From positions 12,488 through 76,487 of the forward strand of contig JAVCCK010000030.1 in the NCBI GenBank assembly GCA_030765525.1: 64,000 nt of DNA. The letters run 5' to 3'. Position numbers and translations under genes: made by a program. The DNA is from Candidatus Lernaella stagnicola (lineage in GTDB: Bacteria > Lernaellota > Lernaellaia > Lernaellales > Lernaellaceae). The notes under the pieces are model-generated. The model was not told where the DNA came from, ran no database searches, and saw only the letters and a list, made by a program, of their open reading frames with translations. Below, one piece after another: positions 14,523 through 61,497 of the stretch. How positions within the stretch are numbered: position 1 is the stretch's first letter; each line of letters begins with the position of its first letter.

Positions 14523-15908
14523 ATGAGACTGATTTCGAAAATACTGATTTTTTTCGCGATTGCGATGTTAAGCGTCACGTTGGTTATCGTCTCCTGCGGC
14601 GACGATGATGATGACGACGACGACAATGACGAGCTCGAAGACGTGCCCAAGGTCTACGACACGACGATCGACGGATGGGCGTTCGGCGACGGCTTGTACC
14701 GCTACGCGCAGGGCCATTGGAACAAGGAAAGCCAATCGCCCTTCAACGTGCAGGTTATCGGTTCCGTGTTCACCGACCGCAGTTACGGCTTCGTTTACAG
14801 CGGTCAGCGCATATACCAGTACCGCGCCGGCGACTGGATTCCCGTCAACAATTCCAACTTCCCGCCGGGATCGATCACCGACGCCACCTTCATCCCCAAC
14901 GGCTCGGCCTGGTTCGCGGTCAATAACGCGTACGGCCGCGGCTCGCTGGTCGGCGTTACCGAAGATGCTCAACCGATGATCTTCGACTCGGAAGGAACGC
15001 TCGCCTCCGTACCCCTCAAGCTCTCGGCCCTCTTCCAGGTCCCCGAGGACAACGCGCTGCACCTGTGCGCGGTCGTGCCCGAGGCGACGGACTACTTCTT
15101 CCAACACCTCCGCTGGGACGGCACCACCGTGACCTCCGAGGTCATGTTCCGCATCGATTTCATGCCGGTCGATCCGCCCGCCGATGACGACGACACCACC
15201 ACCGACGACGACACGACCGCCGATGACGACACCGCCGGCGACGACGACCAACCCGAGTGGTTGCAGATGGTCGATATCCTCGACATGAAAACCGCGCCCG
15301 ACGGTACTATCTGGGCCGCCGGTTGGGATCGCGCCGATGATGCCACTCCGCGCGGCGCGCTCTGGCACCGCGTGGCCAACGGCGAAGAAATCACGTGGGA
15401 GCGCACGTTGCTGGAAACCTCCACCGGCTGCAAAACGACCATGGCGAAAAAATTCGTCTACGCCCCCGACACCGGACGCGCTTTCGTGATCGCCGATTGC
15501 GGCAACTCGCAGATCTATCGGCAAAACGACGACGGCTCTTGGTCGCAGATGCTACTGCCGGGCATCAAAGGCAGCACCTACCGTATCAACGACTTGTCCC
15601 TGGTCACCGAAACCAAGGGGTGGGCCGTGGGTTATACCTCCGACAAGAACGCGCCCCTGTTGCTGGTGCGCAGTACCGCGGGGTGGGAGATCGCCGACGC
15701 ACGTACCTTTGACGTCGGCGACGAGTTGTTCAGCGCGGCCCTCTATTCGGTGCAGTCTCCGGGCGGGTTCTCCGACGACGACACCACGGCCGACGACGAC
15801 ACCACCACCGATGACGACACCACCGGCGACGACGATACGACGACCGACGACGACACCACGGCCGACGACGACGACCTTGTGGGAGACGATGACACGGTCG
15901 GCAGCTAA
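14523..15908 (+). CDS. lipoprotein with three poly-Asp/(DDDxx)n tracts and a beta-propeller-like body
   Basis: GGGAGG then ATG 14523. Lipobox LVIVSC followed at once by GDDDDDDDDNDE. Internal tract DDDDTTTDDDTTADDDTAGDDD. C-terminal tract DDDTTADDDTTTDDDTTGDDDTTTDDDTTADDDDLVGDDDTVGS, with no terminal Cys. The body has GWAVGY/DDGSWSQ-type propeller motifs. Confidence 0.8.
   Translation: MRLISKILIFFAIAMLSVTLVIVSCGDDDDDDDDNDELEDVPKVYDTTIDGWAFGDGLYRYAQGHWNKESQSPFNVQVIGSVFTDRSYGFVYSGQRIYQYRAGDWIPVNNSNFPPGSITDATFIPNGSAWFAVNNAYGRGSLVGVTEDAQPMIFDSEGTLASVPLKLSALFQVPEDNALHLCAVVPEATDYFFQHLRWDGTTVTSEVMFRIDFMPVDPPADDDDTTTDDDTTADDDTAGDDDQPEWLQMVDILDMKTAPDGTIWAAGWDRADDATPRGALWHRVANGEEITWERTLLETSTGCKTTMAKKFVYAPDTGRAFVIADCGNSQIYRQNDDGSWSQMLLPGIKGSTYRINDLSLVTETKGWAVGYTSDKNAPLLLVRSTAGWEIADARTFDVGDELFSAALYSVQSPGGFSDDDTTADDDTTTDDDTTGDDDTTTDDDTTADDDDLVGDDDTVGS
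14601..14630 (+). repeat. Asp-codon run (poly-D directly after the lipobox Cys)
   Basis: GAC GAT GAT GAT GAC GAC GAC GAC AAT GAC, in frame. Confidence 0.9.
15183..15248 (+). repeat. 15-bp-period GAY-rich coding repeat ((DDDxx)n)
   Basis: Encodes DDDDTTTDDDTTADDDTAGDDD. Confidence 0.9.
15774..15893 (+). repeat. 15-bp-period GAY-rich coding repeat ((DDDxx)n)
   Basis: Encodes DDDTTADDDTTTDDDTTGDDDTTTDDDTTADDDDLVGDDD. Confidence 0.9.
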
Positions 15909-15950: not shown

Positions 15951-17228
15951 ATGAATCCGGCAACCCGTAAATACCTCGGCTTAAGCGTCCGCTTCTTGGC
16001 CGGCGGCTTTTTACTGAGCCTGCTGGTTTCGATGCGCGCTTACCAACTGCCCCACTTCCATTTCGGCTTAATCGCGGTGGTAATCGGCGGCTTCCTGCTC
16101 GCCCGACGACGTAATAACCGCGTGCTTTTATTGGACGCCGTCATCGCCTACCTGGCGTTATTTCTCATTCCGCCGGGCTTTATCGGGTGGTCCCTTTCCT
16201 TCGCCTGGACGTTTTCTTCCCTCACGCTGGCGTTGCTTGTCGGGCTGGCGACCTGGCGATTATCCGACAGCCGTTTTACGCCTTTTGTGGCGGCGGTAAC
16301 CGTCGCGGCCATCGCGTCGGCCGGGGCAACGGTCAACACCTTCCGCTTGCAACTCGCCGACATGCCCGTGGAGTGGGCGGGCGTTCCCACAATGATCAAC
16401 GACGCGGGCATCGACCGCGGCGCACCAACCTCGCGCATGCTGAAAGTCGCCCCACGCCGCAAGCTGGGCGAGTTGCCGCAACCGGTGCCCCACGGCGATC
16501 CGCCGGCCGGGCGTGTCGTCGGCCTCGTGGAGCGCGGCGACGCGGAGTTCTATGTCCGCGGCTTCGCCCATGCCTCGAGCGCGGAAATCACGCCCTCGCG
16601 ATTCGTGGTTCCGGAGTGCAATCCGGTGCGCGACATCGATTTCGATCGCGCCTGGCGCCAATGGCTGGTGTTGTGCGGCGCGGGCAAACAGCTCGTGTAT
16701 TACCAAGGTGACGCCAGGATCACCAAGCTGCTCGACCTGCCGGGCATCTGGCCCTTTCGGCTGACGGTGCACCAGGAACTCGAGCGCGTGTTTATCGTCG
16801 ATCCCGGGGGCGGATACCTGATCGAAGTGGCTTTGGAAAGCAACGAAATCCTACGCCAGCCGCACGTCGGCTTCGGCATCAGCGACGTGGAGATCACGCC
16901 GGACGGCCGCTTTTTGTACATCCCCCAACCCTATCGCTCGCGTATCATCGTCCTGAGCGTCACGGACCTGGAAACCGTGCGGGAAGTACCGCTTTCCTTC
17001 GGCGTCGCCCATCTGGCCGTCGACCGGACCCGCGGCCGGATATACGCCGTTGCCATGGGCAGCGGCAAGCTGTTTTCCCTCGATCCGCAAACGCACGAAA
17101 TCGTCGGCGAGGGCGACCTCAACAGCCCGGTGCTCGATGCCGAGTACGACGACGCCGCGGCGCGTTTGTACTGGACGACGCCGCGCGGGTACCGCTGGTC
17201 ATCCATCGACTCACTGTTGACCAAATAA
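15951..17228 (+). CDS. polytopic membrane N-domain fused to a YVTN/YncE-like beta-propeller
   Basis: Roughly 130 aa with about four hydrophobic helices (FLAGGFLLSLLV, LIAVVIGGFLLA, AVIAYLALFLIPPGFIGW, LALLVGLATW, FVAAVTVAAIASAGA). These are followed by repeats such as FLYIPQPYRSRIIVLSVTDLETVREVPL and GRIYAVAMGSGKLFSLDPQTHEIV. Confidence 0.65.
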   Translation: MNPATRKYLGLSVRFLAGGFLLSLLVSMRAYQLPHFHFGLIAVVIGGFLLARRRNNRVLLLDAVIAYLALFLIPPGFIGWSLSFAWTFSSLTLALLVGLATWRLSDSRFTPFVAAVTVAAIASAGATVNTFRLQLADMPVEWAGVPTMINDAGIDRGAPTSRMLKVAPRRKLGELPQPVPHGDPPAGRVVGLVERGDAEFYVRGFAHASSAEITPSRFVVPECNPVRDIDFDRAWRQWLVLCGAGKQLVYYQGDARITKLLDLPGIWPFRLTVHQELERVFIVDPGGGYLIEVALESNEILRQPHVGFGISDVEITPDGRFLYIPQPYRSRIIVLSVTDLETVREVPLSFGVAHLAVDRTRGRIYAVAMGSGKLFSLDPQTHEIVGEGDLNSPVLDAEYDDAAARLYWTTPRGYRWSSIDSLLTK

Positions 17229-17260
17229 AAAAAGACCGGCACCCGCAGGCGCCGGTCTTG
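17227..17260. terminator. bidirectional rho-independent terminator between convergent genes
   Basis: A-run (17225-17233), GACCGGC (17234-17240), a 10-nt loop, GCCGGTC (17251-17257), then TT. Read on the minus strand, the stem is followed by a 7-9 nt T-run. Confidence 0.65.
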
Positions 17261-17281: not shown

Positions 17282-18694
17282 TCAGCAGCCGCAACCGCTA
17301 TCGTCATCGTCGTCGTCACCGCCGATCGGTGCCGTATCGTCGTCGGTGGCGTCGTCGTCGGTGGCGTCATCGTCGGCCGCGTCGTCGTCGGCCGCGTCGT
17401 CATCGCCGGTGTCGTCATCGCCGGTGTCGTCATCGCCGGTGTCGTCATCACCGGTGTCGTCATCGCCGGTCGTATCGTCGTCGCCGGGAGCCGTCACGGT
17501 AACCGTGAAGGCTTGAGTATCGGTGCCTTTTGGGGTGTCGCCGTCATCCACGCTTACTTCCACATCGTAATCATCGGGATCCACGTCGGTGGTATCCCAA
17601 GTGATCTCGCCGGTTACGGAGTCGATCACCATTCCCATCGGACCATCCAGCAGTTCGAACTCCAGCTCATCGTAAAAGTCGATGTCGAACGCTTCGACAT
17701 CGTACTCGTACAAGTCGTCCGCAACCACTTCGGTCACCGCGTCGGACGTGATTTCCGGATCCGCGTTGGCCATCTTCAGGTAGTACGTGGTCGTGTTCTG
17801 TCCGGCGGTAATGCGACCGCCGCCCGCGAAAAGATAGTTTTCGGCGTTCACGGCCCACGCTCCGGCGACCGCCACCGGCAGGGAGTCAATTGCCGTCCAC
17901 GTTCCCTTAGCCGGTGCGAAAGTATACACGTCGTCAAGGAAATCATCCCATCCGGCGAAGCGACCGCCGAGAACGTACAGTTCGTCGCTGTACAACGCGC
18001 AACCGTGGTCCCATCGCCCCAGCGGCGCGACAGGCGACAAGGTCGACCACGTCCCGGCGCCGATATCCAAGGCTTCGGGCGTTAAAGGAGGCGGGCTGAA
18101 TATCAGCGAGTCGACACCACCGGCCACGACGAGATCGCCGCCGATCACGCCGCCGCACGTCAGGAAATCCCCGCCCGGCTGGGTCGCCACGTCGCTTTCG
18201 AAAGTATCGGTTTCCGGGTCATAAACCTTAGTCGGCAGGCCGCGTCCCCAGGTGTAGATATATCCGGATACCGGGTCGAAAGCCGCTTGTACGCCTTCCG
18301 CCAAAGTAACCGCCGCGCCGGTCGACCAGCTATCGGTTGCCGGATCGTAAATGTTCACGACGGTAGTGCTGGCGCCGTCATCTATCCCGAAGATGAAATA
18401 GATTTTCTCGCCGTCGGTTGCGGCGGCGTAACGCGTCAGCTTAATGGGCGCGGTCGCGCCGCTGGTCCACGTGTCGGTCACGGGATCGAATATCCGCACG
18501 GCGTCACTAAATGTGAAGGTTGCGGAATCGAAGCCGCCAATGGCGTAGATTTTGCCGTCGATAAAGAACGCCTTGCCGGCTTCATTGCCCGGGCCGGGCA
18601 TGGTAGAGCCCGAAGTTTCCCATTGCGCCGCGGCGACACCGCAGAACGCGATCAGAAACGCGCCCGCGAGAATTCCAATTAGCATTTTTTTCAT
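17282..18694 (-). CDS. exported Kelch-repeat protein with cadherin-like Ig domain, (DDDxx)n tract and C-terminal CGC
   Basis: GGAGG then ATG 18694 (MKKMLIGILAGAFLIAFCGVAAAQ signal peptide). Kelch-type repeats: IYAIGGFDS, IYFIFGIDDG, LVVAGGVDS, LYVLGGRFAG. He_PIG/dystroglycan-type segment: YEYDVEAFDIDFYDELEFELLDGPMGMVIDSVTGEITWDT. Tail: PGDDDTTGDDDTGDDD...DDDATDDDTAPIGGDDDDDDSGCGC-stop. Confidence 0.85.
   Translation of the reverse strand: MKKMLIGILAGAFLIAFCGVAAAQWETSGSTMPGPGNEAGKAFFIDGKIYAIGGFDSATFTFSDAVRIFDPVTDTWTSGATAPIKLTRYAAATDGEKIYFIFGIDDGASTTVVNIYDPATDSWSTGAAVTLAEGVQAAFDPVSGYIYTWGRGLPTKVYDPETDTFESDVATQPGGDFLTCGGVIGGDLVVAGGVDSLIFSPPPLTPEALDIGAGTWSTLSPVAPLGRWDHGCALYSDELYVLGGRFAGWDDFLDDVYTFAPAKGTWTAIDSLPVAVAGAWAVNAENYLFAGGGRITAGQNTTTYYLKMANADPEITSDAVTEVVADDLYEYDVEAFDIDFYDELEFELLDGPMGMVIDSVTGEITWDTTDVDPDDYDVEVSVDDGDTPKGTDTQAFTVTVTAPGDDDTTGDDDTGDDDTGDDDTGDDDTGDDDAADDDAADDDATDDDATDDDTAPIGGDDDDDDSGCGC
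17285..17482 (-). repeat. 15-bp-period Asp-codon coding repeat ending in TGC GGC TGC
   Basis: Includes five near-perfect tandem copies of GTCGTCATCGCCGGT at 17396-17470, flanked by related 15-mers (GTCGTCGTCGGCCGC, GTCGTCGTCGGTGGC). Confidence 0.9.
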
Positions 18695-18876
18695 TGTAGA
18701 AACCCTCCTCCAGTTTGTTTCGATTATCCAATGCTGCACAACCTAGTCGCATAAGGTCCCCATGGACACACTCAAATAAACATCGTTCACGAGCTTTTGG
18801 CAAGCGTCTTGAGAAGAATTCATATTACGCCTGGGTGGCGCAGGTGTACGAAAGCGAAAACCTAAAAGATATGTGG

Positions 18877-20127
18877 TTAGCAGCCGCAGAACATGTCGTC
18901 GTCGCCGGACGTGTCGTCATCGCCGGCCGTGTCGTCATCGTCGGCCGCTTCGTCATCGTCGGTCGCGTCGTCGTCGCCGCTCGCGTCGTCGTCGCCCGGA
19001 CCCACGTCGTCGTCGGAGGCATCGTCGTCGGTCGCATCGTCGTCGTCATCACCTCCCAGGTCGGGAAGGCCGGATTCGTCGCCGCGCGCCACAAAGAGCG
19101 GGCTCGGGTGCGCGCCCCGGTAGGCAATCGTCACCACGCCCGCGCTGTCGACGGCCAACGAGCAATCGCGCCCGGCCGCGTCGTCTACTTTGTAGATGTG
19201 CCACCAGCCCTTGTCGTTGAGGTTGGCGTAGAGCAACGCGCCGCTGGCTTCATGAACGAAACAAACGTGCGGATTGCCGTCGCCGTCGAGGGACTGGTCG
19301 AAGGACGTCCCGACGCCGGTGACCATTTGGTCCGTATGCAAATTGTTCCATGTACCGCGCGCGTAGTAGAGCGCGCCTTTGTCTTCGTTGAGGTAAACGA
19401 GGTGGATGCCGCCGGTCGCGTCCACCTGCACGTCGCTATACCTGCCGATTACGTCCCACGATTCGTCGCCGTCGACGAGTTTGAAGTCCCACCCCGCTGT
19501 GTGCCCGCGGGCCAACCACATGGCACGACAGTTGGTATCCGGATAGTACCACGACACGATTGACTGACCGTCCGGCGTCACTGCCAGGCCTAGCGCCTCG
19601 CCGCCGATAGTATAGAGATCGCCACCTACGTATTTCGTGTGTGGACCGATCGCATTCATGTAGGTATAAGCGATCTCTTCAACGTTGGTCTGGACCGACG
19701 CCGTGCGCAACCAGTAGTCCCCGTCGTGCGCGACGGCCAAGCCGGTACCGGTGGGGAATGCTTTATCAATAACTCGGATATTCCAGGAATCGCCGTCCCA
19801 CGCCGCATACCGCACTTTCCCGTCGCCGTCGTCACGATAGGCCATGTGTGGATCATCGGCGGCATCAAAGAAAATCCCGCAGTTCGAACCCACATTGCCG
19901 TCAGCATCGACGGTTTCGGTTTCCCAGGCCGCGCCGGTCCATTCGGCGTAATGGGCCGCGTAATTATCCTTGTTGAGATAACAAATACCGGGGCGGTCGT
20001 CGCTGGTTAGCGCGATTTCGGTAAAATACCCGGTATCGCCTTCTTCGACCGTATCGATCACAAATCCGGCGTGGGCAACCGCTGCCATCGCCAATACAAA
20101 AACTACCGCATAGATCATTCGCTTCAT
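18877..20127 (-). CDS. exported repeat (propeller-like) protein with (DDDxx)n tract and C-terminal CGC
   Basis: GGGAGGA then ATG 20127 (MKRMIYAVVFVLAMAAVAHA). About six repeats of the pattern D..G.PH.AY.D...G.(V/L)(R/Y)YA...G..W....VD. Tail: GGDDDDDATDDDASDDD...DDDTSGDDDMFCGC-stop. Confidence 0.8.
   Translation of the reverse strand: MKRMIYAVVFVLAMAAVAHAGFVIDTVEEGDTGYFTEIALTSDDRPGICYLNKDNYAAHYAEWTGAAWETETVDADGNVGSNCGIFFDAADDPHMAYRDDGDGKVRYAAWDGDSWNIRVIDKAFPTGTGLAVAHDGDYWLRTASVQTNVEEIAYTYMNAIGPHTKYVGGDLYTIGGEALGLAVTPDGQSIVSWYYPDTNCRAMWLARGHTAGWDFKLVDGDESWDVIGRYSDVQVDATGGIHLVYLNEDKGALYYARGTWNNLHTDQMVTGVGTSFDQSLDGDGNPHVCFVHEASGALLYANLNDKGWWHIYKVDDAAGRDCSLAVDSAGVVTIAYRGAHPSPLFVARGDESGLPDLGGDDDDDATDDDASDDDVGPGDDDASGDDDATDDDEAADDDDTAGDDDTSGDDDMFCGC
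18880..19050 (-). repeat. 15-bp-period Asp-codon coding repeat
   Basis: Runs of GTCGTC/ATCGTC with 15-bp periodicity encoding DDD[AT][SGTD] pentads. Confidence 0.9.
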
Positions 20128-20315
20128 CGAATGTCCTCCCATTAGATATTCGTTATCAGGAATATGCCGAAAGATAGAATACGACTGCTCTCAATTCCCG
20201 TAAAGGGAATATTCTATTTTTCAGCAAAAAGTGTCGGGAGATACGGAAATACTTTAAGGGCCTAGTAGATAACCAAAGGGCTAACGTGCCGGTCGGTAAC
20301 TATTTTTCCGAAAAA

Positions 20316-21575
20316 CTAGCAGGCGCAACCGCCGCCGTCGTCGTCGTCGTCATCGTCGCCCGCGGCCGTATCGTCGTCGGTCGCATCGTCGTCAGTCGCA
20401 TCGTCGTCAGTCGCATCGTCGTCGGACGCATCGTCGTCGGACGCATCGTCGTCGGTCGCATCGTCGTCGTCGTCGCCCGTGGTATCGTCGTCGTCATCGC
20501 CGATCGCGCCGCCGTACTGCGGCAAACCCGAAGCGTCGCCCCGCGCCACATAAAGCGTGCTTGGCTTGGCGTCACGGTAGGTCATGGTCACCAAGCCGCT
20601 ATCGTCGACCACCAGCGAACACTCCAACCCGGCGCCGTCGGCCACTCGGTAGGTGCGCCAGCCCGGCGTGTCGCGATAGGCGTAACGCAGCATGTCTTCG
20701 GCGGCGTCGTAATAACAGGCGTGGGGAGTCCCGGCCGCGTCGAGGGTCAAATCGAGAGAGCTGCCCGCGTCGCCGTCACCATCAAGCAACTCGACGGAGA
20801 AATCCGTCCACGTACCCGCCGCATAATACAGCGACCCTTCGGTTTCGTTGTAATAAGCGATGTGAAATTCGTTGCCCTCGAGCGCCAAGGCCAGGTCGGT
20901 ACCCAACTGGTCCGTGGTTTCGTCGCCGTCGATCAACAAAAACTGCCAGGCGTCGTCGTGACCGCGCGTCAGCCAAATATCATTCCATTCCGTTTCGTGA
21001 AACGCGATGTAGGAAACGTCGCCGCTATTGACCGCCAAACCCGTGGCGCGCCCGCCGACGGTTTGCCAATCCGATACATAGGTCGTGTACGCGCCGCCGC
21101 CGTCCATCCAGCTATAGGCCACTTCGACGTAGTCTTCCTGCACCGAGGAGGTCCGCGGCCAGCCCAGGCTGTCGCGCGCCACGCTCAGGCCCAAGCCGGT
21201 GGGCGCGGTGCCATCGAGCGTGATAATCGTCCAGGAGTCGTCGTCCCGATAGGCATAGCGCACGAACTTGTCGCCGTTGTCGCGATAGGCGACGTGCGGC
21301 TCGTTGTCACCGTCGAAAAACACGCCGCAATAGGAGCCGACATCGCCGTCACTATCGATCGTGTCGATATCCCACGCGTCACCGGTCCAGTGGGCGATTT
21401 TGGCTGAGTCGTCGGTTTCGTTGGCGAAGCAAATACCCGGACGCGATAGGCCGTCCAGGGCAATCTCCGGCGTGTAGCCGGTATCGCCGGTTTCGACGGT
21501 TTCAACAGTGAATTCGGCAACCGCGGTCGCGGCAAACGCCACGACGACCACCACGATCAGCAACAAACGGCGCAT
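20316..21575 (-). CDS. exported repeat (propeller-like) protein, paralogue of 18877-20127, with (DDDxx)n tract and C-terminal CAC
   Basis: GGGAGGA then ATG 21575 (MRRLLLIVVVVVAFAATAVAEF). N-terminal alignment with the neighbour is obvious by eye: TVETVETGDTGYTPEIAL...RPGICF...AHWTGDAWDIDTIDSDGDVGSYCGVFFDGDNEPHVAYRD versus IDTVEEGDTGYFTEIAL...RPGICY...AEWTGAAWETETVDADGNVGSNCGIFFDAADDPHMAYRD. Tail: IGDDDDDTTGDDDDDATDDDASDDD...DDDDDDDGGGCAC-stop. Confidence 0.8.
   Translation of the reverse strand: MRRLLLIVVVVVAFAATAVAEFTVETVETGDTGYTPEIALDGLSRPGICFANETDDSAKIAHWTGDAWDIDTIDSDGDVGSYCGVFFDGDNEPHVAYRDNGDKFVRYAYRDDDSWTIITLDGTAPTGLGLSVARDSLGWPRTSSVQEDYVEVAYSWMDGGGAYTTYVSDWQTVGGRATGLAVNSGDVSYIAFHETEWNDIWLTRGHDDAWQFLLIDGDETTDQLGTDLALALEGNEFHIAYYNETEGSLYYAAGTWTDFSVELLDGDGDAGSSLDLTLDAAGTPHACYYDAAEDMLRYAYRDTPGWRTYRVADGAGLECSLVVDDSGLVTMTYRDAKPSTLYVARGDASGLPQYGGAIGDDDDDTTGDDDDDATDDDASDDDASDDDATDDDATDDDATDDDTAAGDDDDDDDGGGCAC
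20319..20498 (-). repeat. 15-bp-period Asp-codon coding repeat
   Basis: Tandem GTCGCATCGTCGTCA/GGACGCATCGTCGTC 15-mers (about 20385-20460) within a longer GAY-rich tract. Confidence 0.9.
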
Positions 21576-31051: not shown

Positions 31052-31924
31052 ATGAAAAGCTTGACTCGATTCAATTTCTTGTTCGCCATGATGCTCGCCC
31101 TGGTCATGGTCATGGGCGTGTTAGCCGCATGCGATGACGATGACGATGACGATGATGATGATGCCGGCGACGACGACGCCACCGACGACGACACCACCGA
31201 CGACGACGCCACCGACGACGACGCCACCGATGACGACGACGATGATGACGACGACGATGATACGGCTCCCGGTAATGCGCGCATCCGCGCTCTGCACCTA
31301 AGCCCGAACGCGGGCATCGTTGACATTTGGGTCGACAACACCCTCGAATTCGTGGCCGACGTTGACTTCACCGAGGGCTCGACTTACGGCGAAGTGCCCG
31401 CCGGCATGTATACGATTAACATCGTGCCCGACGGCGGCGACCCGGCCACTGATAGCGTGTTCGACATCCCCGTCGATCTCGCGGCCGACACCGATTACAC
31501 CGCCGTGGTGTACGGTGAGATCCCGATCTCCAAAGAAGACAGCGGCCTGGCCGCCTTGCTGATCATCGACGACGCCTCGGCGGCGATGGACCCGGCGAAC
31601 TTCATCCTGTTCGTGGGCCACACGGCTGACGCCGCGATTCTCAATCCGGTAGACGTGTACGCCATCCTCGACGGCAGCGACGATTTGCTGTTGATCGACG
31701 AATTTGCGTACGGCGGCGGTGAGTTCTTCGAACTGGCTCCCGCCAGCTACGACATCGGCTTTGACTTGAACGAAGACCCGTCCGACTACGACGCCGCGTT
31801 CACGACGCCCGATCTGCCCGGCGGCGCGCAGTACAACGTCTTTGCGGTCTACGACGATCCGGACATCTTCCTGATCGCCCAGTTGCCTGACGGCACCACG
31901 GCCCGCATCGACCCCAACATGTAA
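31052..31924 (+). CDS. DUF4397-like lipoprotein with an N-terminal (DDDxx)n tract directly after the lipobox Cys
   Basis: Lipobox GVLAAC, then DDDDDDDDDAGDDDATDDDTTDDDATDDDATDDDDDDDDDDDTAPG. The body matches the DUF4397 pattern (ARIRALHLSPNAGIVDIWVDN..., YTAVVYG, NVFAVYDD). Confidence 0.8.
   Translation: MKSLTRFNFLFAMMLALVMVMGVLAACDDDDDDDDDDAGDDDATDDDTTDDDATDDDATDDDDDDDDDDDTAPGNARIRALHLSPNAGIVDIWVDNTLEFVADVDFTEGSTYGEVPAGMYTINIVPDGGDPATDSVFDIPVDLAADTDYTAVVYGEIPISKEDSGLAALLIIDDASAAMDPANFILFVGHTADAAILNPVDVYAILDGSDDLLLIDEFAYGGGEFFELAPASYDIGFDLNEDPSDYDAAFTTPDLPGGAQYNVFAVYDDPDIFLIAQLPDGTTARIDPNM
31133..31261 (+). repeat. Asp-codon coding repeat
   Basis: GAT/GAC runs with 15-bp GACGACGCCACCGAC units. 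Confidence 0.9.
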
Positions 31925-35133: not shown

Positions 35134-36042
35134 GTGGCAAAAAAAGTATTGATCGTATTATTCGCATTCAGCGTGCTCTTTTTGGGCTTCTCGGTCGGCC
35201 GCTTCACAAGCATTATCCCGACAAGCAAAATGAGCTACGCCGCGAAACAGAATAAGCAGTTCAAAGAACTCGACGAAATGAACCAGGCTCTGGCTTTGGC
35301 GATCGCCGCCTCGAGCCCCACCATCGCCGAGGAAATGGTCAAAAACCTGAAGAAACAGGAAAACCTGCCGCGCGAAGCCTTCACGACCTTGGTCGCCTTG
35401 GCCAAAGGCGTACAGGGCAGCGGCAAAGGCAAGCAGGGCCAGCGGCCTCAGCGAACCGCCCCGTCCAACGATCCCAAAGACGTATTCAAGCAGGAAAAAG
35501 TCACGCTCGACGTTCCCCAGGGCTCATACTCCGTCGGCAATAAAAACGCCCCGGTTCAGATCGTGACCTTCACCGAATTCCTCTGCCCGTATTGCGCCCG
35601 TCTCGACCCGTCCATTCGTCAGTTACAGGAAGAATTCGGCGCCGACAAAGTGCATGTCACCTTCCAGTCGCGGATCGTCCACGGTGAACGCGCCGAGTTC
35701 TATCACCGCGCCGCCGCAGCCGCCGGATTGCAGGGCAAGTTCTTCGAATTTGTCGACGCGCTGTTCAGCACCCAAAAGGACTGGATCCGCACACCGCCGG
35801 AAAAAGCCTTCGACGAAGTCATTGCCCCGAAAGCCAAGGCGCTGGGCCTGGACGTGGCGAAGCTGAAAAAAGATATGGACGGCGACAAAGTCAAAGCCCA
35901 GGTTGGCGCGGAAGACGCGCTGGGACAAAAGCTTGGTGTCCGCGGCACGCCGACTTCCTTCGTCAACGGATACATGGTGCGCGGCGCCAAACCGAAGGAA
36001 TTCTTCAAAGGCGTGATCGAGATGGCGCTTGAGAAGAAGTAG
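35134..36042 (+). CDS. DsbA-family thiol:disulfide oxidoreductase, membrane-anchored
   Basis: GTG start and N-terminal TM anchor. Thioredoxin fold with VTFTEFLCPYCARLDP (CPYC) and a C-terminal GVRGTPTSFVNG cis-Pro loop. Confidence 0.85.
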   Translation: MAKKVLIVLFAFSVLFLGFSVGRFTSIIPTSKMSYAAKQNKQFKELDEMNQALALAIAASSPTIAEEMVKNLKKQENLPREAFTTLVALAKGVQGSGKGKQGQRPQRTAPSNDPKDVFKQEKVTLDVPQGSYSVGNKNAPVQIVTFTEFLCPYCARLDPSIRQLQEEFGADKVHVTFQSRIVHGERAEFYHRAAAAAGLQGKFFEFVDALFSTQKDWIRTPPEKAFDEVIAPKAKALGLDVAKLKKDMDGDKVKAQVGAEDALGQKLGVRGTPTSFVNGYMVRGAKPKEFFKGVIEMALEKK

Positions 36043-37567: not shown

Positions 37568-37597
37568 ACGACCGGGTTCGCCCCGGTCGTTTTTTTT
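37568..37597 (+). terminator. rho-independent terminator after cysS
   Basis: ACGACCGGG (37568-37576), a 5-nt loop, CCCGGTCGT (37582-37590), then TTTTTTT. The T-run overlaps the stop codon of the convergent radical SAM gene. Confidence 0.8.
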
Positions 37598-38996
37598 AAC
37601 CCCGTACGATGTCGCCGGCGCGGCGGGCGATCGCCCACAGGTTGCGCGGAGTGAGGCGCCTGGCTTGCCGCCAGATCGGCGTCGGACGCAGGTAGAAACG
37701 CCGATAAGCGCGGCGCAGTTCGCGGTACAACACGGCGGGCGTCAGAAATTCGGTCCAAACCGGCGGCTGGAACGAGGAATCCGGATGCCGGGCGAACGAC
37801 CGCCACACCTCGGGATCGATCAGCCCCCGCGCGACCGCCACCTCGAAAAGCGGCGTCCCCGGGTACGGCACCAACACGTTGAACACCGCGTAATCCGGAT
37901 CGAGTTCCACCGCGAATTCAACCGTCCCGCGAATATCCGCCACCGCGCGATCGGTCGGCAGGCCGATCATGAAATACGCCGCCGAGGGCACGCCCGCCTC
38001 CCGCAGCAGCGCGACGGCTCGCCGGGCGTCATCGGTCGTGATGCTCTTGCCCAGCACTTCCAGGGCCTCGGGCGTGGCGGCTTCGACGCCGAGCTGCACG
38101 CGCACGCAACCGGCCGGTTTGAGCAGCCGCGCCAGTTCCGGCGTCAACCGGTCGAGGCGGGCGCGACACGTCCAGGTAAGCGGCAGCTTGCGGCGGATGA
38201 GCTCCTCGCACAGCGCGGCGGCCCGCTCGGGTTGCAGGTTGAAAGTGTCGTCAACGAAATACACCTCGCGGAAACCCTGCCCGGCCAACTCCTGCAATTC
38301 TTCGGCGACGGCCTTCGGGTCGCGCAGGCGCACCGGCGGACCGGGCGTCGAGCAAAAAGTGCACGCAAAGGGGCAGCCGCGGCTGGTTGATACCGTGGCC
38401 AGCGGCCCCGCGCTCACGGCGACGTCGCCATACAGCGAGCGATCCAGCAGCGAGCGATCGGGAGTCGGCAGTTCGTCCAAGTCCTTTGGCCGGCAAACCG
38501 GCTCCCCACGCACCAGCTTGCCGTCGCGCATGAACAGCACGCCCGGCGGCGCCGTTTCCGGCAACCCGCCCTTCCACGCCGCCAAAAACGCGGGCAGCGA
38601 TTCGTCGGCTTCATCCAGGAAAGCTGCGTCAACTTCCTCCAACCCGGCCGCTTCGACCGCGAAGGCGTTGACGTGCGGCCCGCCCAGGACCCGCAGCGCC
38701 TCCGGCCGCTGTTGCTTCACCGCGGCCAGCACGTGCACGGCGTCGACGAGTTGATAGGTCGTGGCCGTCACACCCACGACATCGGGCGCGAATTCCTGCA
38801 CGTGCAACAGTACCTCGCGCACGCCCGCGCCGCTGTTGCCCGCATCGAAAAAACGTACCTCGTGCCCGGCCCGCTTGAGCGCCGCGGCGACGTACAGCAA
38901 GCCCAGCGGCGGCAGCCTGCCCCCCTCGCGCACGACGTCGGGAATTTCCCCGGAAATCGCGTTGTCGCCCGGCGGGTTGATCAGCAAGACCTTCAT
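37596..38996 (-). CDS. B12-binding-domain (class B) radical SAM protein
   Basis: Trimmed to ATG 38996 (MKVLLINPP...), which overlaps the upstream stop as ATGA. N-terminal Rossmann/B12-like domain and a CPFACTFC (CxxxCxxC) cluster. Confidence 0.8.
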   Translation of the reverse strand: MKVLLINPPGDNAISGEIPDVVREGGRLPPLGLLYVAAALKRAGHEVRFFDAGNSGAGVREVLLHVQEFAPDVVGVTATTYQLVDAVHVLAAVKQQRPEALRVLGGPHVNAFAVEAAGLEEVDAAFLDEADESLPAFLAAWKGGLPETAPPGVLFMRDGKLVRGEPVCRPKDLDELPTPDRSLLDRSLYGDVAVSAGPLATVSTSRGCPFACTFCSTPGPPVRLRDPKAVAEELQELAGQGFREVYFVDDTFNLQPERAAALCEELIRRKLPLTWTCRARLDRLTPELARLLKPAGCVRVQLGVEAATPEALEVLGKSITTDDARRAVALLREAGVPSAAYFMIGLPTDRAVADIRGTVEFAVELDPDYAVFNVLVPYPGTPLFEVAVARGLIDPEVWRSFARHPDSSFQPPVWTEFLTPAVLYRELRRAYRRFYLRPTPIWRQARRLTPRNLWAIARRAGDIVRG

Positions 38997-40078
38997 GACA
39001 CCAACCCTGCGAGACGGCGGATGTCGGCTTCGCTCCGCGGCGAGCGGCGACGCGACATGCCGGCGGTCTGCAGCCGCACCTGATCCCACATCGCGCCCGG
39101 GTCTACCGCCAGCAGCGCGACTTCCGCCCAGCAAGGGCGCAGGCAGTCGGGGCAAGACGCCGTTTCCCGGCGGATGAATTCTTCGGTCCATCGCGCGGCG
39201 ATCTGTTCGACCTCCACCGCGTCAATGGTTTCGAAATGGTGGCAAAGGCTGGCCTTGCCGTCGGGCCGCAACGACAAATAGGCCCGCCCCGCCAGGCAGC
39301 GCCACGTCGTGCGGCCTTCGAGAAGGTAGCCGGGGATTTCAGCGAGAAAGGCTCGCGAGTTGGCCACGTGCCCGCGACGCTTTTTGTCGGCCACGGCTTC
39401 GTTCACGAAGGCCCGCAGCGCATCGGCCTGCTCGGGCGGAAAGGCGTGCGATGCGTCGCTGCCGAAAAAGGCGTCGCCTTCGACGTCGGCTAGATGCACC
39501 GGAATAAAACTCACCTGCGCGCCCAGGTTGTAGGCCAGGTCGGAAATGCGCGGCAGGTCGGCCAGGTTCTTGGCGCTGACGATGGTGTTGATCAACCACC
39601 CGGCCGTGTGCGGCAGGGTTTGCGTCAACATGGCCAGGTTGGCCAGTCGTTTATCGAGCCCGCCGGGCAGGCCGTCGAATTCTTCCTGCACCGCCGCGTC
39701 GAGGCTGTCGAGCGAAAACGACAGGTCGGCCATGCCCGCGGCCAAACAGGCGCGCACCTTCGCCTCGTTGACGGCCACGCCGTTGGTCAACACGCGCACG
39801 CGAAAACCGTGATCGGCAAACGCGGCGACGACCTCCGCCACATCCTCGCGCACAAAGGGTTCGCCGCCGCCGAGACTAATTGTCGTGGCGCCCCGCTCGG
39901 CCAGCAAGCGAGCGATCTCCCGCCAGCGCTCCGGCGTTGCTTCCTCGAGCTCCCCCGCCCGCTTGTAGACGCCGCACATGCCGCATCGCAGGTTGCAGCG
40001 GTGCGTGATCCCGGCGTGCACGTAGGTAAGGTTTCGGCGCAGCAAATTGACGGCGGTGCGTATCACGCGCGGCGTCAT
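38993..40078 (-). CDS. radical SAM protein with C-terminal SPASM/twitch-like Cys cluster
   Basis: Trimmed to ATG 40078 (TGATG overlap with the upstream stop). Has GITHRCNLRCGMC (CxxxCxxC), GGGEPF, and C-terminal Cys residues WRCLAG...LCHH...CPDCLRPCW. Confidence 0.75.
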   Translation of the reverse strand: MTPRVIRTAVNLLRRNLTYVHAGITHRCNLRCGMCGVYKRAGELEEATPERWREIARLLAERGATTISLGGGEPFVREDVAEVVAAFADHGFRVRVLTNGVAVNEAKVRACLAAGMADLSFSLDSLDAAVQEEFDGLPGGLDKRLANLAMLTQTLPHTAGWLINTIVSAKNLADLPRISDLAYNLGAQVSFIPVHLADVEGDAFFGSDASHAFPPEQADALRAFVNEAVADKKRRGHVANSRAFLAEIPGYLLEGRTTWRCLAGRAYLSLRPDGKASLCHHFETIDAVEVEQIAARWTEEFIRRETASCPDCLRPCWAEVALLAVDPGAMWDQVRLQTAGMSRRRSPRSEADIRRLAGLVS

Positions 40079-41490
40079 CAGGCGCTCCGTTGGTCGCGGC
40101 CGAGTATCAGGTAAAGCACCAGGCGAATCGCTTCGAGGTACCGGCGCACGTCCCGCCAACCATGGATGTTCCTCAAGTGCCGCCACCACAGCTTGGGCCG
40201 CAACAGGAAGCGACGATAAAAGCGGCGCTGCGCCGCCATCAGGCTTTCGCGCGTCCAACCGTGCGGTACGAACACCGGCTCCCAGAAAGAAAAATCGGTC
40301 GTATCGTGACCGGTCAGCGACCCCCACGACGACCACTGCTCGTATTGCGGCGTGCCGCGCATGGGCGTGTTGATCTGCACGGTCACTTCCATCAACGGCA
40401 GACTCAGCGCGAATTCGATCGATCGCCGCACCGACGCGTCGGTCTCGCCGAAATGGCCGAGCATGAAAAACGCCTTCATCTGGATGCCCTGCTTATCGCC
40501 CCATTCGGCGGCCTGCCGAATCTGCTCCGTCTTCACGTCTTTATCGATGCGCCGCAGAATCTCCGGATCGCCCGACTCGATACCCAGGCGCGCCCGCCAG
40601 CAGCCCGCCTCGCGGAACAAGGCGAACATCTCTTCGTCCACCGTGTCGGCGCGTAGGGTGCAGGTCCACTCAGTTTTGATGCCGCGGGCGATCATGCCGC
40701 GCGCGATATCCTTGGCGCGCTCGTCGAGGGTGGCAAAGGTGCTGTCCAAAAAGGCGATGCCCCGCGCGCCGTGTTCCGCAATGCAGTGCTCCACCTCGTC
40801 CAACACGCGCTCGACGCTGTGAGCGCGCATGCGCCTGCCGAACACGTTCTTGTCGCAAAAGATGCAGCCGTGCGGGCAGCCGCGGGTGGTGATCATCGGG
40901 ATTTTCGGCAACTCGCGGTAATCGGCGGGGATGGGCCGGTACAGTTCTTTTTTCATCAGGTGCCGCGCCGGATACGGTAGTTCATCCAGGTGCGAGACGA
41001 CTTCGGCCGGGCCCGTGTTTCGCAGCCGGCCGTCCTCGCGCACCAACAAACCGGGAATTTGCGGCCACGGCTCGCCGGCCAGAATCCGCGCGAAGGCCGT
41101 CTCGCCCTCGCCGAGCACGCCCGCATCGAAGGGTGTATCGCTCAGCGCGTCCTCACGCCACGCGGCCAGGTGCGGCCCCCCCACAATTAAAGGTATCGAC
41201 GGCCACCGTTGCCGGAAGGCGTTCGCGGTGGCGACGCTCATCACCCAACTGGTCGTCACGCCGGTCAGGCCAATGAGGTCCGGCCCGAACTCGCCGGTAC
41301 GCCGCATCAGTTCGGCCATCGTGAGGCGCTCGACCGCGGCGTCGATAATCATCGCCTCGTGCCCGTCGCGTTCGGCGATGGCGGCTAGGTAGCCCAGCCC
41401 CAGCGGCATGCTGTTGTAAAACAGCCGGGCCACTACGGCGTTGCCCCTTTCCCGCGGGGCAATCGGCGGATTGACGAGCAATACTTTCAT
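40078..41490 (-). CDS. B12-binding-domain (class B) radical SAM protein
   Basis: Trimmed to ATG 41490 (MKVLLVNPP...). Has a CPHGCIFC cluster. Paralogous in layout to 37596-38996. Confidence 0.8.
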   Translation of the reverse strand: MKVLLVNPPIAPRERGNAVVARLFYNSMPLGLGYLAAIAERDGHEAMIIDAAVERLTMAELMRRTGEFGPDLIGLTGVTTSWVMSVATANAFRQRWPSIPLIVGGPHLAAWREDALSDTPFDAGVLGEGETAFARILAGEPWPQIPGLLVREDGRLRNTGPAEVVSHLDELPYPARHLMKKELYRPIPADYRELPKIPMITTRGCPHGCIFCDKNVFGRRMRAHSVERVLDEVEHCIAEHGARGIAFLDSTFATLDERAKDIARGMIARGIKTEWTCTLRADTVDEEMFALFREAGCWRARLGIESGDPEILRRIDKDVKTEQIRQAAEWGDKQGIQMKAFFMLGHFGETDASVRRSIEFALSLPLMEVTVQINTPMRGTPQYEQWSSWGSLTGHDTTDFSFWEPVFVPHGWTRESLMAAQRRFYRRFLLRPKLWWRHLRNIHGWRDVRRYLEAIRLVLYLILGRDQRSA

Positions 41491-41542
41491 CTTGGGAAAG
41501 ATACCAGGGTAGTCCCGGTCGCAAAAGAGCGAAGGGGGGTTC

Positions 41543-41968
41543 TCAGTTACGGATCGCTTTTGACAACGAATACCCGGCGCCGCCGAACAGGATCGTGCCG
41601 GCAACCAGCAGGATAATGATTCCGGAAATCGGCGGCGAGGGAAAACGCACCGCGATGTTGGTTGTGACCTTGGCGTCTTTGGTCGGGCCCTGCGCTTTGA
41701 TTTCCACGAGACCCGAAGCCGTCGGTAGCCACCGCAATCGACCGTCGGCGGCGGGCGGGCCGAGCTGGTTGATTTGCGCCGTGGCGGAGTTGGGCCGGTA
41801 GGTGACCACGAACGACCAGGCGGTCGGGTCTTCGACGTCACTTAGGGTGACGAACACTTCCTGTCCCCGAATCGGAAACTCGGGCTCGCATTCGATTTTC
41901 GCGGCCCAAGCCGGCGCAGTCAGGGCCAACACAAATACCGCCAGCAAAATCGTCGCCGTCGTTTTCAT
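41543..41968 (-). CDS. small exported Ig-like protein with C-terminal TM anchor
   Basis: Signal peptide MKTTATILLAVFVLALTAPAWA, a beta-rich body and a C-terminal helix ISGIIILLVAGTILFGGAGY. Its ATG overlaps the transporter stop (ATGA). Confidence 0.6.
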   Translation of the reverse strand: MKTTATILLAVFVLALTAPAWAAKIECEPEFPIRGQEVFVTLSDVEDPTAWSFVVTYRPNSATAQINQLGPPAADGRLRWLPTASGLVEIKAQGPTKDAKVTTNIAVRFPSPPISGIIILLVAGTILFGGAGYSLSKAIRN

Positions 41969-48729: not shown

Positions 48730-48847
48730 AAAAATGACACCGGAAAATAGCACGCGGCCACCGCCGGCTCAAGACGAACGATGGGGCCGGCCCCAAGAAA
48801 AAGCGCGGCGGAAACCCGCCGCGCTTTTATGTTTCAATGCTACTCGA

Positions 48848-50605
48848 TCAGCAACCGCAACCGTCGTCGTCGTCGTCATCGTCGTCGGCGCCGTCGCCGC
48901 CGTTGTCGTCGTCGCTGCCGGTCGTGTCATCATCGCCGGTCGTATCGTCGTCACCGATCGTGTCGTCGTCGCCCGTGGTGTCGTCATCACCAACGGTATC
49001 GTCGTCGCTGCCGAACACGGTGATGGTCACCGTGTCGGTGTCGGCATCGGTGCCGTCGTCGACGGTCAGCGTCACGATGATGTCGCCCGCCGTACCGGCC
49101 GTGAAGGTCGTCGCCACGGCAGTCGCGTCATCAAAGGTCACGCCGTCGGCTTCCCACAGGTAGGTCAACGGGTCTTCGTCGGCGTCGGAGGAGCCGCTGC
49201 CGTCCAGGGCCACGGTGTCACCGAGGTCGACTTCTTGATCATCGCCCGCGTCGGCAATCGGCGGGTCATTAAGCTGCGTGTACTTGTAAACCGCCAAGTC
49301 GAACGCGGCGGCATAACCGAGCTTGTTGCTGCCCCAGCCGAAACCGAGTATCGGGTGGCCCCACGGCACGACGGTGTCTTCCTGTTGCCAGGTCAAGCCG
49401 CTGTCATCGGAATACATGATCAGCGCTTTGTAGCTGAAGCTGTTACCGGCCGCGCCGCCCAGGAATCCGATTTGGCCGCTGGGCTGGAAGGACATCGCGC
49501 CCAGCGCGTAAGACGGAGCGCCCGGAATGTTGGGCTGCGGCACGCGGGAAGTCACATCTTCCCAGGTGTCGCCGGCGTCTTCGGAGACCCACAGGTTGTA
49601 GGGATGCGTCGTGTAGACGTGCGGATCGCCCATCACCCAGATGGTGTCCTCATCGACCATTTCGACCCACATGTAGCCATCGCTGGGTGTATCTTGCACT
49701 AGTTCCCAGGTCTGGCCGCCGTCGTGGGTGCGGTAGATTTGGCCGTCGGTGTACTTGCCACCCATCAATTCGGGGTGCTCTTCACGATACTTCAAGCGAT
49801 ACATCGGGTCGTGTTGATACAGCGCGCGATGTTTGGCGCTGCGGTACATCGCCATGGCCTCTTCATAGGTCATTTCGCCCTTGGCCTCGGGTTCGTCTTC
49901 CATCGAGCCGGTGATGATGAAACCGTACTCCGGCGTGATGAAATCGACGTCGTTGAAGTAAGTCTCGTTGTTGCCCGGCGAGTTGATGCGGTTCCAGCTC
50001 GCGCCGCCGTCCTGCGTCCGAATGATGTACTGCGGGCCGCCGACCGCGTACCCGATGGTGTCGTCGGCGTAATCCATCGCGGTGGCCATGTTCATCATGC
50101 TGGCGCCGTTAATCTCGGCCACGGTCCAGTTGATGCCGCCGTCGTTGGAGTACTCAATCATGGTCTGCATTTGGAGCATGCAAACGAACATGCACGCCGG
50201 GAACGGCGTCTGCTCGAGGCATTCCGGGTTGATGCCGAAGCCGATGAGCTGCACGTTGTCCGGACCCGTCGAGTCGACCTGCAGGAACATGTTCATGATC
50301 TGCAGCATCATGCAATCATCGGTTATGTAGGTCATGTCCAATTCGTGAATCGGTACGAATGTCTGGCCGCCGTTGTGCGTGGCCCAAGCGTGCTGAATCG
50401 ACAGCGCGCCACTCTGATACATGCCCACCGTGTAGGCCGTGTCTTCATCCGGCACCGTAATGCCCATGACCGCGGCGTTGGACAAACCCGGCGGGTACGG
50501 CAACGGATCCCAGACTTCTTCCCAGACTCCGTATTCGGCCATCGCCGGCATGGCCCATAGGGCAGCCGCCATGCACAGTGCCAACAAAATACTAACTTTC
50601 TTCAT
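48848..50605 (-). CDS. exported BNR/Asp-box beta-propeller plus PKD-like domain protein with (DDDxx)n tract and C-terminal CGC
   Basis: AGGAGG then ATG 50605. Signal peptide MKKVSILLALCMAAALWAMPAMA. Asp-boxes: SNDGGINWT, TQDGGASWN, THDGGQTWE, SDDSGLTWQ. PKD-like segment: PPIADAGDDQEVDLGDTVALDGSGSSDADEDPLTYLWE. Tail: SDDDTVGDDDTTGDDDTIGDDD...GADDDDDDDDGCGC-stop. Confidence 0.85.
   Translation of the reverse strand: MKKVSILLALCMAAALWAMPAMAEYGVWEEVWDPLPYPPGLSNAAVMGITVPDEDTAYTVGMYQSGALSIQHAWATHNGGQTFVPIHELDMTYITDDCMMLQIMNMFLQVDSTGPDNVQLIGFGINPECLEQTPFPACMFVCMLQMQTMIEYSNDGGINWTVAEINGASMMNMATAMDYADDTIGYAVGGPQYIIRTQDGGASWNRINSPGNNETYFNDVDFITPEYGFIITGSMEDEPEAKGEMTYEEAMAMYRSAKHRALYQHDPMYRLKYREEHPELMGGKYTDGQIYRTHDGGQTWELVQDTPSDGYMWVEMVDEDTIWVMGDPHVYTTHPYNLWVSEDAGDTWEDVTSRVPQPNIPGAPSYALGAMSFQPSGQIGFLGGAAGNSFSYKALIMYSDDSGLTWQQEDTVVPWGHPILGFGWGSNKLGYAAAFDLAVYKYTQLNDPPIADAGDDQEVDLGDTVALDGSGSSDADEDPLTYLWEADGVTFDDATAVATTFTAGTAGDIIVTLTVDDGTDADTDTVTITVFGSDDDTVGDDDTTGDDDTIGDDDTTGDDDTTGSDDDNGGDGADDDDDDDDGCGC
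48851..49006 (-). repeat. 15-bp-period Asp-codon coding repeat ending in TGC GGT TGC
   Basis: GTCGTCATCGCCGGT-like and GTCGTCGTCACCGAT-like 15-mers. Confidence 0.9.
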
Positions 50606-55662: not shown

Positions 55663-55670
55663 GATCTCCC

Positions 55671-59640: not shown

Positions 59641-60002
59641 TACAACAACCTCACAAACTCGCTGAGCACGTGCGGTTTCTTGTGCTCGTCGAGGAAAAAG
59701 ATTTTTACGTGGCGACGCTTGCGGTTCGTCGTTTCCAACACCTGCACGTCGAGGCCGGAGATCTCGCCGCGGCGCACCATCGGCAGCAACAGCTCGAACG
59801 CCCGGTCGCCGACGATCACGTCAATCGCGTCAACCGATTTCGGCGGCCGCGGCGGGTCGCCCCGCTCCGGATCGCTCCACACCGGGCCCCACAACGGCCG
59901 CAGTAGGCGCCGCGCTTTATCGACGATCGACGTGGCCCGCTGAATTTGGCCCGCCGGAGAAACGCGCCAACCGGCACCGAAATAGGCAAATCCGTACGTC
60001 AT
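59640..60002 (-). CDS. small baseplate wedge protein (gp25/gpW/XkdS-like position)
   Basis: 120 aa, directly upstream of baseplate J with a TAATG overlap. Called by size and synteny. Confidence 0.5.
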   Translation of the reverse strand: MTYGFAYFGAGWRVSPAGQIQRATSIVDKARRLLRPLWGPVWSDPERGDPPRPPKSVDAIDVIVGDRAFELLLPMVRRGEISGLDVQVLETTNRKRRHVKIFFLDEHKKPHVLSEFVRLL

Positions 60003-61488: not shown

Positions 61489-61497
61489 TTTCTTTCC

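Follow-up and report, generated by a model that had tools for sequence, protein, structure and literature searches.

The window analysed here, a stretch of 64,000 nucleotides (nt) from contig JAVCCK010000030.1 of Candidatus Lernaella stagnicola, encodes five exported proteins (A to E) that end in an Asp-rich tail, a terminal Cys motif and, directly after it, the stop codon. The tail is best explained, with a probability of roughly 0.6, as a two-part C-terminal sorting or anchoring module in which an acidic disordered spacer is joined to a terminal Cys motif, of the MYXO-CTERM type but devoid of the helix and encoded in an already "cleaved" form. As far as the sequences can tell, it probably represents a new, helix-less means by which a C-terminal Cys holds proteins at the cell envelope. 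Three of the genes (A, B and C) had been singled out in an earlier note, made from the same sequence, as exported proteins sharing a (DDDxx)n tract with a terminal Cys; this is confirmed, and a six-frame scan of the window adds two further tail-bearing genes, D and E.

All five genes encode signal-peptide proteins in which (DDDxx)n is followed by GCGC, FCGC or GCAC and then by the stop (Table 1). The tails of A to C comprise 68 to 74 residues, of which 45 to 51% are Asp and at most one is Lys or Arg, and the tail DNA shows an imperfect periodicity of 15 and 18 nt. The N-termini of A, B and C are signal-peptide-like, with a basic region, a hydrophobic region and an AxA site. The signals of all five proteins are of the AxA type and do not fit the lipobox pattern [LVI][ASTVI][GAS]C; they were judged by eye from their n, h and c regions and AxA-type sites. 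B and C are paralogues with 48% identity. In the AlphaFold2 model of C, residues 21-350 form a seven-bladed propeller whose blocks mostly have a predicted local distance difference test score (pLDDT) above 90, and the closest solved folds are the Photorhabdus PLL/PHL lectins. From residue 357 onwards the tail is modelled at low confidence (pLDDT 45-54) and lacks secondary structure. It has no match in Pfam either, in agreement with the earlier view that it is not a folded C-terminal domain of the type IX secretion system (T9SS).

One genome per GTDB species was scanned for DNA encoding D-D-D-D-G-C-G-C, a stop codon not being required, which gave at least 125 matches. Among the 125 matches listed, 69 have a stop codon directly after the motif, against an expectation of 3/64 (binomial 2e-57), so that an enrichment over chance, which the earlier note had asked about, is evident. 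All 69 of these listed matches belong to seven related metagenome-assembled genomes (MAGs), namely DAIMDW and DAIPLW (20 each), DAINPV (15), JAOSJX (five), CAZPJD (four), CAYSHR (three) and CAXXWT (two), in which just two listed matches lack an immediate stop. None of the 54 listed matches in other taxa is stop-terminated, and no real-looking open reading frame (ORF) ending in GCGC is found at the loci outside the lineage. In MAGs labelled Myxococcota, the in-frame matches listed show GCGC, about 10 residues, a helix and then RRRR, and they pass the MYXO-CTERM model TIGR03901. The labels of the seven MAGs and of close relatives of the window proteins disagree, ranging over 'bacterium', 'Deltaproteobacteria bacterium' (isolate FR-FEN-1099-1), 'Myxococcales bacterium' and 'Myxococcota bacterium'; FEN-1099 is Candidatus Lernaellota. 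The window has no nucleotide-level match among the fetched GTDB loci, and the only close relative found is the metagenome contig L121, with 69-78% nucleotide identity. A profile of the five window tails gave no match among 1.84 billion representative proteins, which says nothing on distribution because low-complexity correction strips the tail signal. The full-text literature on Asp-rich tails with a C-terminal Cys, on MYXO-CTERM and on surface proteins of Lernaellota/FEN-1099 yielded no description of a stop-terminated Asp-rich GCGC tail, and the databases name the tagged proteins 'hypothetical' or by their passenger domain alone.

The end of the tail is retained among relatives of the window genes. 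Protein B is identical in two independent metagenome assemblies (L122 and L123). In the same assemblies C (L122:542-1771 and L123:357-1586) has exactly two DDDxx pentads fewer and keeps its GGGCAC end; its spacer thus differs in length, in frame, between near-identical strains. An assembly artefact in the GAC tracts, considered earlier as a possible source of these ends, is not supported by this agreement. In the syntenic contig L121 the orthologue of C, with 58% identity, ends in GGSCGC, and orthologues of D in three MAGs, with 37-40% identity, keep the tail, so that the terminal Cys is conserved across orthologues as the first interpretation of the tail had supposed. All three stop codons are in use after the tails and double stops are frequent; TGA is the commonest (50/77 tagged genes), and a strong hairpin with a T-run lies within 90 nt of the stop in 28 of the 77. 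Selection acts on the C-terminal end, which persists in orthologues of 37-58% identity and despite changes in the length of the Asp tract, and the single-Cys end GGGCA is kept in orthologues of three species.

Two repeated elements are found just past the stops of tagged genes. An element of about 45 nt, ACGATTGAGCG(A/C)AGCGAAATCCCGCCAACGGCGGGA, which contains the hairpin CCCGCC/GGCGGG, lies directly past the stop of Asp-GCGC genes in L010 (-, ~1047), L014 (+204), L056 (+2659), L093 (+584) and L112 (-, ~2498). In all five occurrences in about 0.9 Mb, a further, incomplete copy of the tail end, 13-47 nt long and with its stop, comes next; the element may be a small insertion with variable target duplication or the trace of tail capture by GAC-repeat recombination. 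Heptamer-like runs, (CGGAATG / CGAATG)n, are located just past the stop of many tagged genes in CTOTU MAGs (L002, L006, L016, L035, L037, L051, L070, L085, L088, L106, L114 and L119).

Positions -4 to -1 of 83 lineage tails are occupied by Gly in 77, Cys in 77, Gly in 76 and Cys in 74, most loci having been chosen through the D4GCGC motif itself, so that motif-independent estimates come from about 21 tails. The ends of these 21 tails are GCGC, SCGC, FCGC, ACGC, GCAC, GCGGC, GGGCA, GGCA, GMCA, SCGS, GCGS, GCCG and GCCGL; GGCS, GCGCGSVNL and GCGGCSLI (the last in P0005) are further ends in the lineage. The terminal C-[G/A]-C-COOH that the earlier note took to be invariant does not hold across the lineage, because ends such as GGGCA, GGCA, GGCS, SCGS, GCCG, GCCGL, GCGGC and GCGGCSLI occur. 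What is invariant is instead that one or more Cys stand among the last few residues, with Gly before and nothing but small residues after. The (DDDxx)n tract, which had also been counted as part of a tail-specific signal, fares no better in that role. Asp tracts directly follow the N-terminal lipobox Cys in gene F (...SC-GDDDDDDDD), in the lipobox comparison gene of Table 1 (...AC-DDDDDDDDDD) and in many proteins of related loci, with seven lipobox-Cys plus polyAsp proteins within 20 kb at L125:306-18809. Such tracts are a general tether or interdomain linker in this lineage. Since the Asp spacer is generic and also stands behind lipoboxes and between domains, specificity lies in the C-terminal end, and the terminal Cys motif is the actual tag. 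L125, which derives from another organism in the same sample as L121, also encodes one C-terminal variant, GCGGCSLI, in which the Cys is followed by three residues as in a CaaX box.

The motif links the tail to MYXO-CTERM (NCBIfam TIGR03901). The published signature of this signal is GCGC with an invariant Cys and a frequent second Cys, and cleavage by myxosortase is proposed just distal to the last Cys; the working model comprises Sec export, hold by the C-terminal helix, attachment of a lipid to the Cys by an unidentified enzyme and type II secretion to the surface, and the myxosortases MrtX, MrtC and MrtP belong to the CPBP family, i.e. the Rce1 family (10.1101/2023.06.07.544157; PMC11980579). 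By their sequence features, A to E share with MYXO-CTERM the extreme C-terminal position on signal-peptide proteins and the Cys signature motif (GCGC, FCGC or GCAC in 5/5). They do not share the helix, as the stop directly follows the last Cys and the downstream frames examined contain no hydrophobic segment, nor the Arg-rich cluster, with 0-1 Lys or Arg in the whole tail. Neither the whole window proteins nor the isolated tails match TIGR03901 or the other NCBIfam sorting models even at E <= 10, and the tails give no match at this threshold to the models for PEP-CTERM, GlyGly-CTERM, LPXTG, JDVT-, Synerg- and CGP-CTERM. This absence is meaningful because the same tool detects true MYXO-CTERM tails: with a TIGR03901 cutoff of 20 bits, it assigns 28.8 to the L048 tail and 23-31.5 to another five tripartite tails, whose MAGs mostly bear Myxococcota labels (two 'Rickettsiales', one 'Deltaproteobacteria'). 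For TIGR03901 it is also expected, because only the first four model positions would be present in the tails. The initial statement that no described C-terminal model matches the tail therefore stands.

Tripartite forms are also found in the tag-rich MAGs. A matrixin gene of L048 ends in ...DDDDDDGCGC-VVGGEGGDAALVWLLLTLATAFLLLRKKATR, and in L093 a stop-terminated gene is immediately followed, on its downstream side, by one with ...GGCGG, a helix and RRKK. With the L048 matrixin as query, 16 orthologues with 42-88% identity were found. Fourteen of them, like the query, possess the Cys motif (mostly GCGC), the helix and the basic cluster; the other two, P0154 and P0157, stop at the motif, with the ends ...NGGCGC and ...GGGCGC. 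The TAG and TGA stops are real in the contigs of these short matrixins, L126 and L127, which share with L048 a gene order of two upstream genes, the matrixin and a carbamate-kinase-like gene. The carbamate-kinase-like gene starts 50-60 nt past the matrixin stop in L126 and L127, and no frame downstream of that stop contains a helix and a basic cluster. The switch among the matrixin orthologues indicates that the tail is a MYXO-CTERM-type signal that stops where cleavage is proposed. As the tag equals the MYXO-CTERM motif minus the helix and the basic cluster, the proteins would be encoded in the proposed post-myxosortase form. The tail shares motif, position and evolutionary continuity with MYXO-CTERM, yet it is not a member of the family as now defined, because helix, basic cluster and model score all fail. 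The earlier note had set MYXO-CTERM aside; this is contradicted by the GCGC motif, which is the published MYXO-CTERM signature, and by the matrixin switch.

Several observations are consistent with an anchoring role. Relatives of C carry this tail, a lipobox with polyAsp or, in other phyla, a T9SS C-terminal domain. Over 240-440 residues, the C-terminally tagged protein L076 shares about 29-31% identity with the lipobox plus polyAsp proteins L012, L101 and L103, and the C-terminally tagged L092 is homologous to the MYXO-CTERM protein L115. A lipobox-like signal is present in 1/55 C-terminally tagged ORFs, that one being probably a false positive, against 27/130 other signal-peptide ORFs (Fisher p = 5e-4), as determined with a crude home-made signal-peptide rule on uncurated ORFs. 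Gene F combines a lipobox with an Asp tail that has no terminal Cys. The cargo is diverse, as is typical of surface-sorting systems: 48 tagged proteins match 41 Pfam families, including PKD, subtilases, M14 and C25 peptidases, Kelch/BNR/SBBP propellers and phosphoesterases. This is the behaviour that the earlier note had predicted for a sorting or anchoring module on unrelated passengers.

Under the anchoring interpretation, the proteins would be exported by Sec and their N-terminal signal peptides removed by signal peptidase I. The terminal thiol or thiols would then be covalently modified, most likely with a thioether-linked lipid as proposed for MYXO-CTERM, and the passenger (a protease, phosphatase, lectin-like propeller etc.) would be held at the membrane or cell surface on a polyanionic tether of 50-70 residues. 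Such a C-terminal tether would mirror the N-terminal lipobox-Cys-Gly-polyAsp lipoproteins of the same organisms, and intramembrane cleavage would be unnecessary for helix-less substrates. Lgt-type thioether chemistry is favoured because it needs no ATP in the periplasm. Rhombosortase-type transamidation draws its energy from peptide-bond cleavage, a step absent for stop-terminated tails. A more specific proposal, that of a mirror-image lipoprotein pathway, is that the free C-terminal Cys (G-C-G-C-COOH) of a translocated, soluble, polyanionic tail is S-lipidated with neither a membrane-spanning signal nor an intramembrane protease. This is put forward tentatively, at rather less than even odds. 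If true, such a pathway would hold much of the exported proteome in place by the C-terminus (5 of about 45-50 window genes), would separate the Cys-modifying enzyme of MYXO-CTERM from myxosortase, and would reduce the sorting tag to four residues.

Several points weigh against a helix-less anchoring module, among them the crude rule behind the lipobox comparison mentioned above. In the absence of a helix nothing obvious brings a very acidic end to a membrane enzyme, and the motif has no lipobox at positions -3/-2. The Cys modification is a proposal only, both for these tails and for MYXO-CTERM itself, and the taxonomic labels of the tail-bearing lineage conflict. Neither the window nor about 0.9 Mb of related DNA, a sample too small to be informative, yielded a candidate partner enzyme: annotation of nearly all window genes with Pfam and NCBIfam reveals neither a myxosortase/CPBP protease nor an Lgt-like enzyme nor any further candidate, and a CPBP motif pattern run over all fetched DNA has its sole match in an unrelated Singulisphaera locus and none in lineage DNA, which is likewise uninformative at this sampling.

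Non-lipid thiol chemistry would give the tail a different function, with CXC and polyAsp acting as a handle for metals, cations or minerals, as a redox-active CGC unit or in a disulfide to a partner or surface lattice; the tail Cys may also form a disulfide with an anchored partner. Asp makes up about 50% of the tails, which also offer two vicinal thiols; both the window and L126 contain DsbA-like thioredoxin-fold genes, and CGC peptides mimic protein disulfide isomerase in their redox activity. Such chemistry is nevertheless judged unlikely. Asp tracts are generic in the lineage, so polyAsp is no dedicated binding handle, and the conserved single-Cys ends (GGGCA, GGCA, GGCS and SCGS) make a requirement for a CXC chelate or redox pair less likely; the MYXO-CTERM motif and the equivalence with lipobox tethers fit anchoring better.

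Loss of the helix and the Arg cluster might also have the opposite effect, making MYXO-CTERM-type proteins soluble, either secreted or periplasmic, with GCGC as a leftover or as an element recognised, for instance, by type II secretion. The matrixins show that a tripartite tail can give rise to the short form or be derived from it, Myxococcus xanthus TraA forms without the CTERM occur in the medium, and nothing hydrophobic is left in the tail. A leftover should decay, however, yet in seven species 69 genes (among the matches listed) have their stop directly past the Cys motif, and the motif survives 37-58% orthologue identity together with in-frame changes in tract length. Lipobox avoidance suggests anchoring, as does the swapping of tag and lipobox tether between homologous passengers, and in gene F, where another anchor exists, the Asp tail can do without Cys. 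Release is considered about as improbable as a non-lipid role of the thiols. An assembly or frameshift error in the GAC tract, or readthrough or recoding of the stop into a helix, is rejected as highly improbable on stop usage, downstream context and independent assemblies, for although GAC-rich repeats are prone to slippage, tract length varies between assemblies and TGA predominates among the stops, all three stop codons occur and are often doubled, a hairpin with T-run terminator or the next gene follows within 50-90 nt, no downstream frame of L126 or L127 has a helix and basic cluster, and the independent assemblies agree.

Among the other annotated genes of the window are those for Tol-Pal, SMC, CysS, a DsbA-like lipoprotein, three radical-SAM proteins, an ABC transporter, formate-dehydrogenase-like proteins and a Mu-like prophage. 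The DsbA-like thioredoxin-fold gene (35134-36042, +) adjoins cysS and partially matches the Rcas_1661 thioredoxin-like lipoprotein family; a homologue with 41% identity is located at L126:6967-7641 (-), about 4 kb from the truncated-tail matrixin gene. Directly upstream of D, a 272-amino-acid signal-peptide protein that ends in ...GTNVQY and resembles an outer-membrane beta-barrel (50742-51560, -) has no match in Pfam or NCBIfam, and its position next to the D orthologues is kept in L056 and L106 (38% identity). Between F and A lies the gene of a 425-amino-acid protein (15951-17228, +) that has several hydrophobic segments near its N-terminus and a propeller-like region at its C-terminus; its sole match, weak and partial, is to a lactonase-type NosZ propeller. 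The three adjacent radical-SAM genes (37596-41841, -), two of them with B12-binding domains, have their best partial matches to HpnJ, BchE and lipid-biosynthesis types, well under the curated cutoffs, and no link between them and the tails was found. The right end of the window (55075-63944, -) is occupied by tail and baseplate genes of the Mu-like prophage (Baseplate_J, Gp48-like, gp44-like hub and CHAP domain).

Table 1. Positions of the tagged genes, their tails, terminator-like elements and lipobox comparison genes in the window.
Feature	Position	Strand	Characteristics
Gene A	17282-18694	-	Signal peptide, propeller of Kelch repeats and He_PIG Ig domain (Pfam), Asp-rich tail; end ...DDDDDDSGCGC-TGA
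Tail of A	17285-17506	-	74 amino acids, 36 Asp, no Lys/Arg; last codons encode GCGC
Intrinsic-terminator-like hairpin and T-run, just past stop of A	17227-17257	-	
Gene B	18877-20127	-	Signal peptide, seven-bladed propeller, paralogue of C, Asp-rich tail; end ...DDDMFCGC-TAA
Tail of B	18880-19092	-	71 amino acids, 32 Asp
Gene C	20316-21575	-	Signal peptide, seven-bladed lectin-like propeller, Asp-rich tail; end ...DDDDDDDGGGCAC-TAG (GGGCAC-TAG)
Tail of C	20319-20522	-	68 amino acids, 35 Asp; length polymorphic
Gene D	48848-50605	-	Signal peptide, BNR/sortilin-type propeller, PKD domain, Asp-rich tail; end DDGCGC-TGA
Tail of D	48851-49030	-	60 amino acids, 27 Asp
Hairpin and T-run past stop of D	48795-48828	-	
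Gene E	51766-53514	+	Signal peptide, BNR-type propeller, PKD domain, Asp-rich tail; end DDGCGC-TAG
Tail of E	53353-53511	+	53 amino acids, 26 Asp
Gene F	14523-15908	+	Lipobox IVSC then GDDDDDDDD; interdomain Asp tract; C-terminal Asp tract ending DDDTVGS without Cys
Lipobox and Asp comparison gene	31052-31924	+	Lipobox LAAC, Asp-rich linker of about 45 residues, DUF4397; no C-terminal Cys

Bacterial and archaeal C-terminal sorting signals are defined by a tripartite layout, each with a dedicated membrane protease. The key chemical step of the MYXO-CTERM system is the modification of the invariant Cys, and the present lineage offers dozens of already "cleaved" substrates per genome. If the helix-less proteins are still anchored, the Cys modification would need neither the helix nor myxosortase. 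For genome annotation, the tail is a feature that no model recognises, and an anchoring tag of four residues behind a charged spacer could serve as a handle for protein display.

Among known systems, GlyGly-CTERM/rhombosortase, PEP-CTERM/exosortase, LPXTG/sortase and the T9SS domain resemble the tail in placing a common C-terminal module on unrelated exported passengers. The first three are tripartite with a helix, whereas the tail has neither helix nor basic end, and the T9SS C-terminal domain (PF18962 and relatives) is a folded beta-sandwich of about 80 residues, in contrast to the disordered tail. The comparison with CaaX and Rab CXC prenylation, drawn in the earlier note for Rab, is a purely formal one, in that a Cys stands at or near the C-terminus, CXC ends and ends with three residues after the Cys both occur (GCGGCSLI, P0005), and the cognate protease family of MYXO-CTERM is Rce1/CPBP. 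It fails in that the tagged proteins carry Sec signal peptides and conservation extends to ends in which a single Cys precedes Ala or Gly-Ser. Prenyltransferases are cytosolic and would not meet Sec-exported proteins; none was seen in the window. MYXO-CTERM differs from the tail in its transmembrane helix and Arg/Lys cluster, so that the tail offers no substrate to an intramembrane protease and no obvious retention at the inner membrane before modification, and in its distribution, the tail belonging to an uncultured lineage labelled 'bacterium', 'Deltaproteobacteria' or FEN-1099 rather than to characterised Myxococcota. In common with MYXO-CTERM, the tail is C-terminal on Sec-exported proteins, has a disordered linker before a GCGC motif with an invariant Cys and is found on many diverse passengers per genome; its encoded end equals the proposed mature MYXO-CTERM end, and true tripartite versions are found in the same MAGs and in orthologues. 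N-terminal lipoproteins of the Lgt/Lsp pathway differ in that the tail Cys is C-terminal, has no adjoining h-region and is preceded at -3/-2 by Asp rather than by hydrophobic or small residues. Their layout is the mirror image of the tail, ...[G/A/S]-C-G-D-D-D-D... in the lipoproteins and ...D-D-D-D-G-C-G-C in the tails, and homologous passengers use either the lipobox or the C-terminal tag, rarely or never both.

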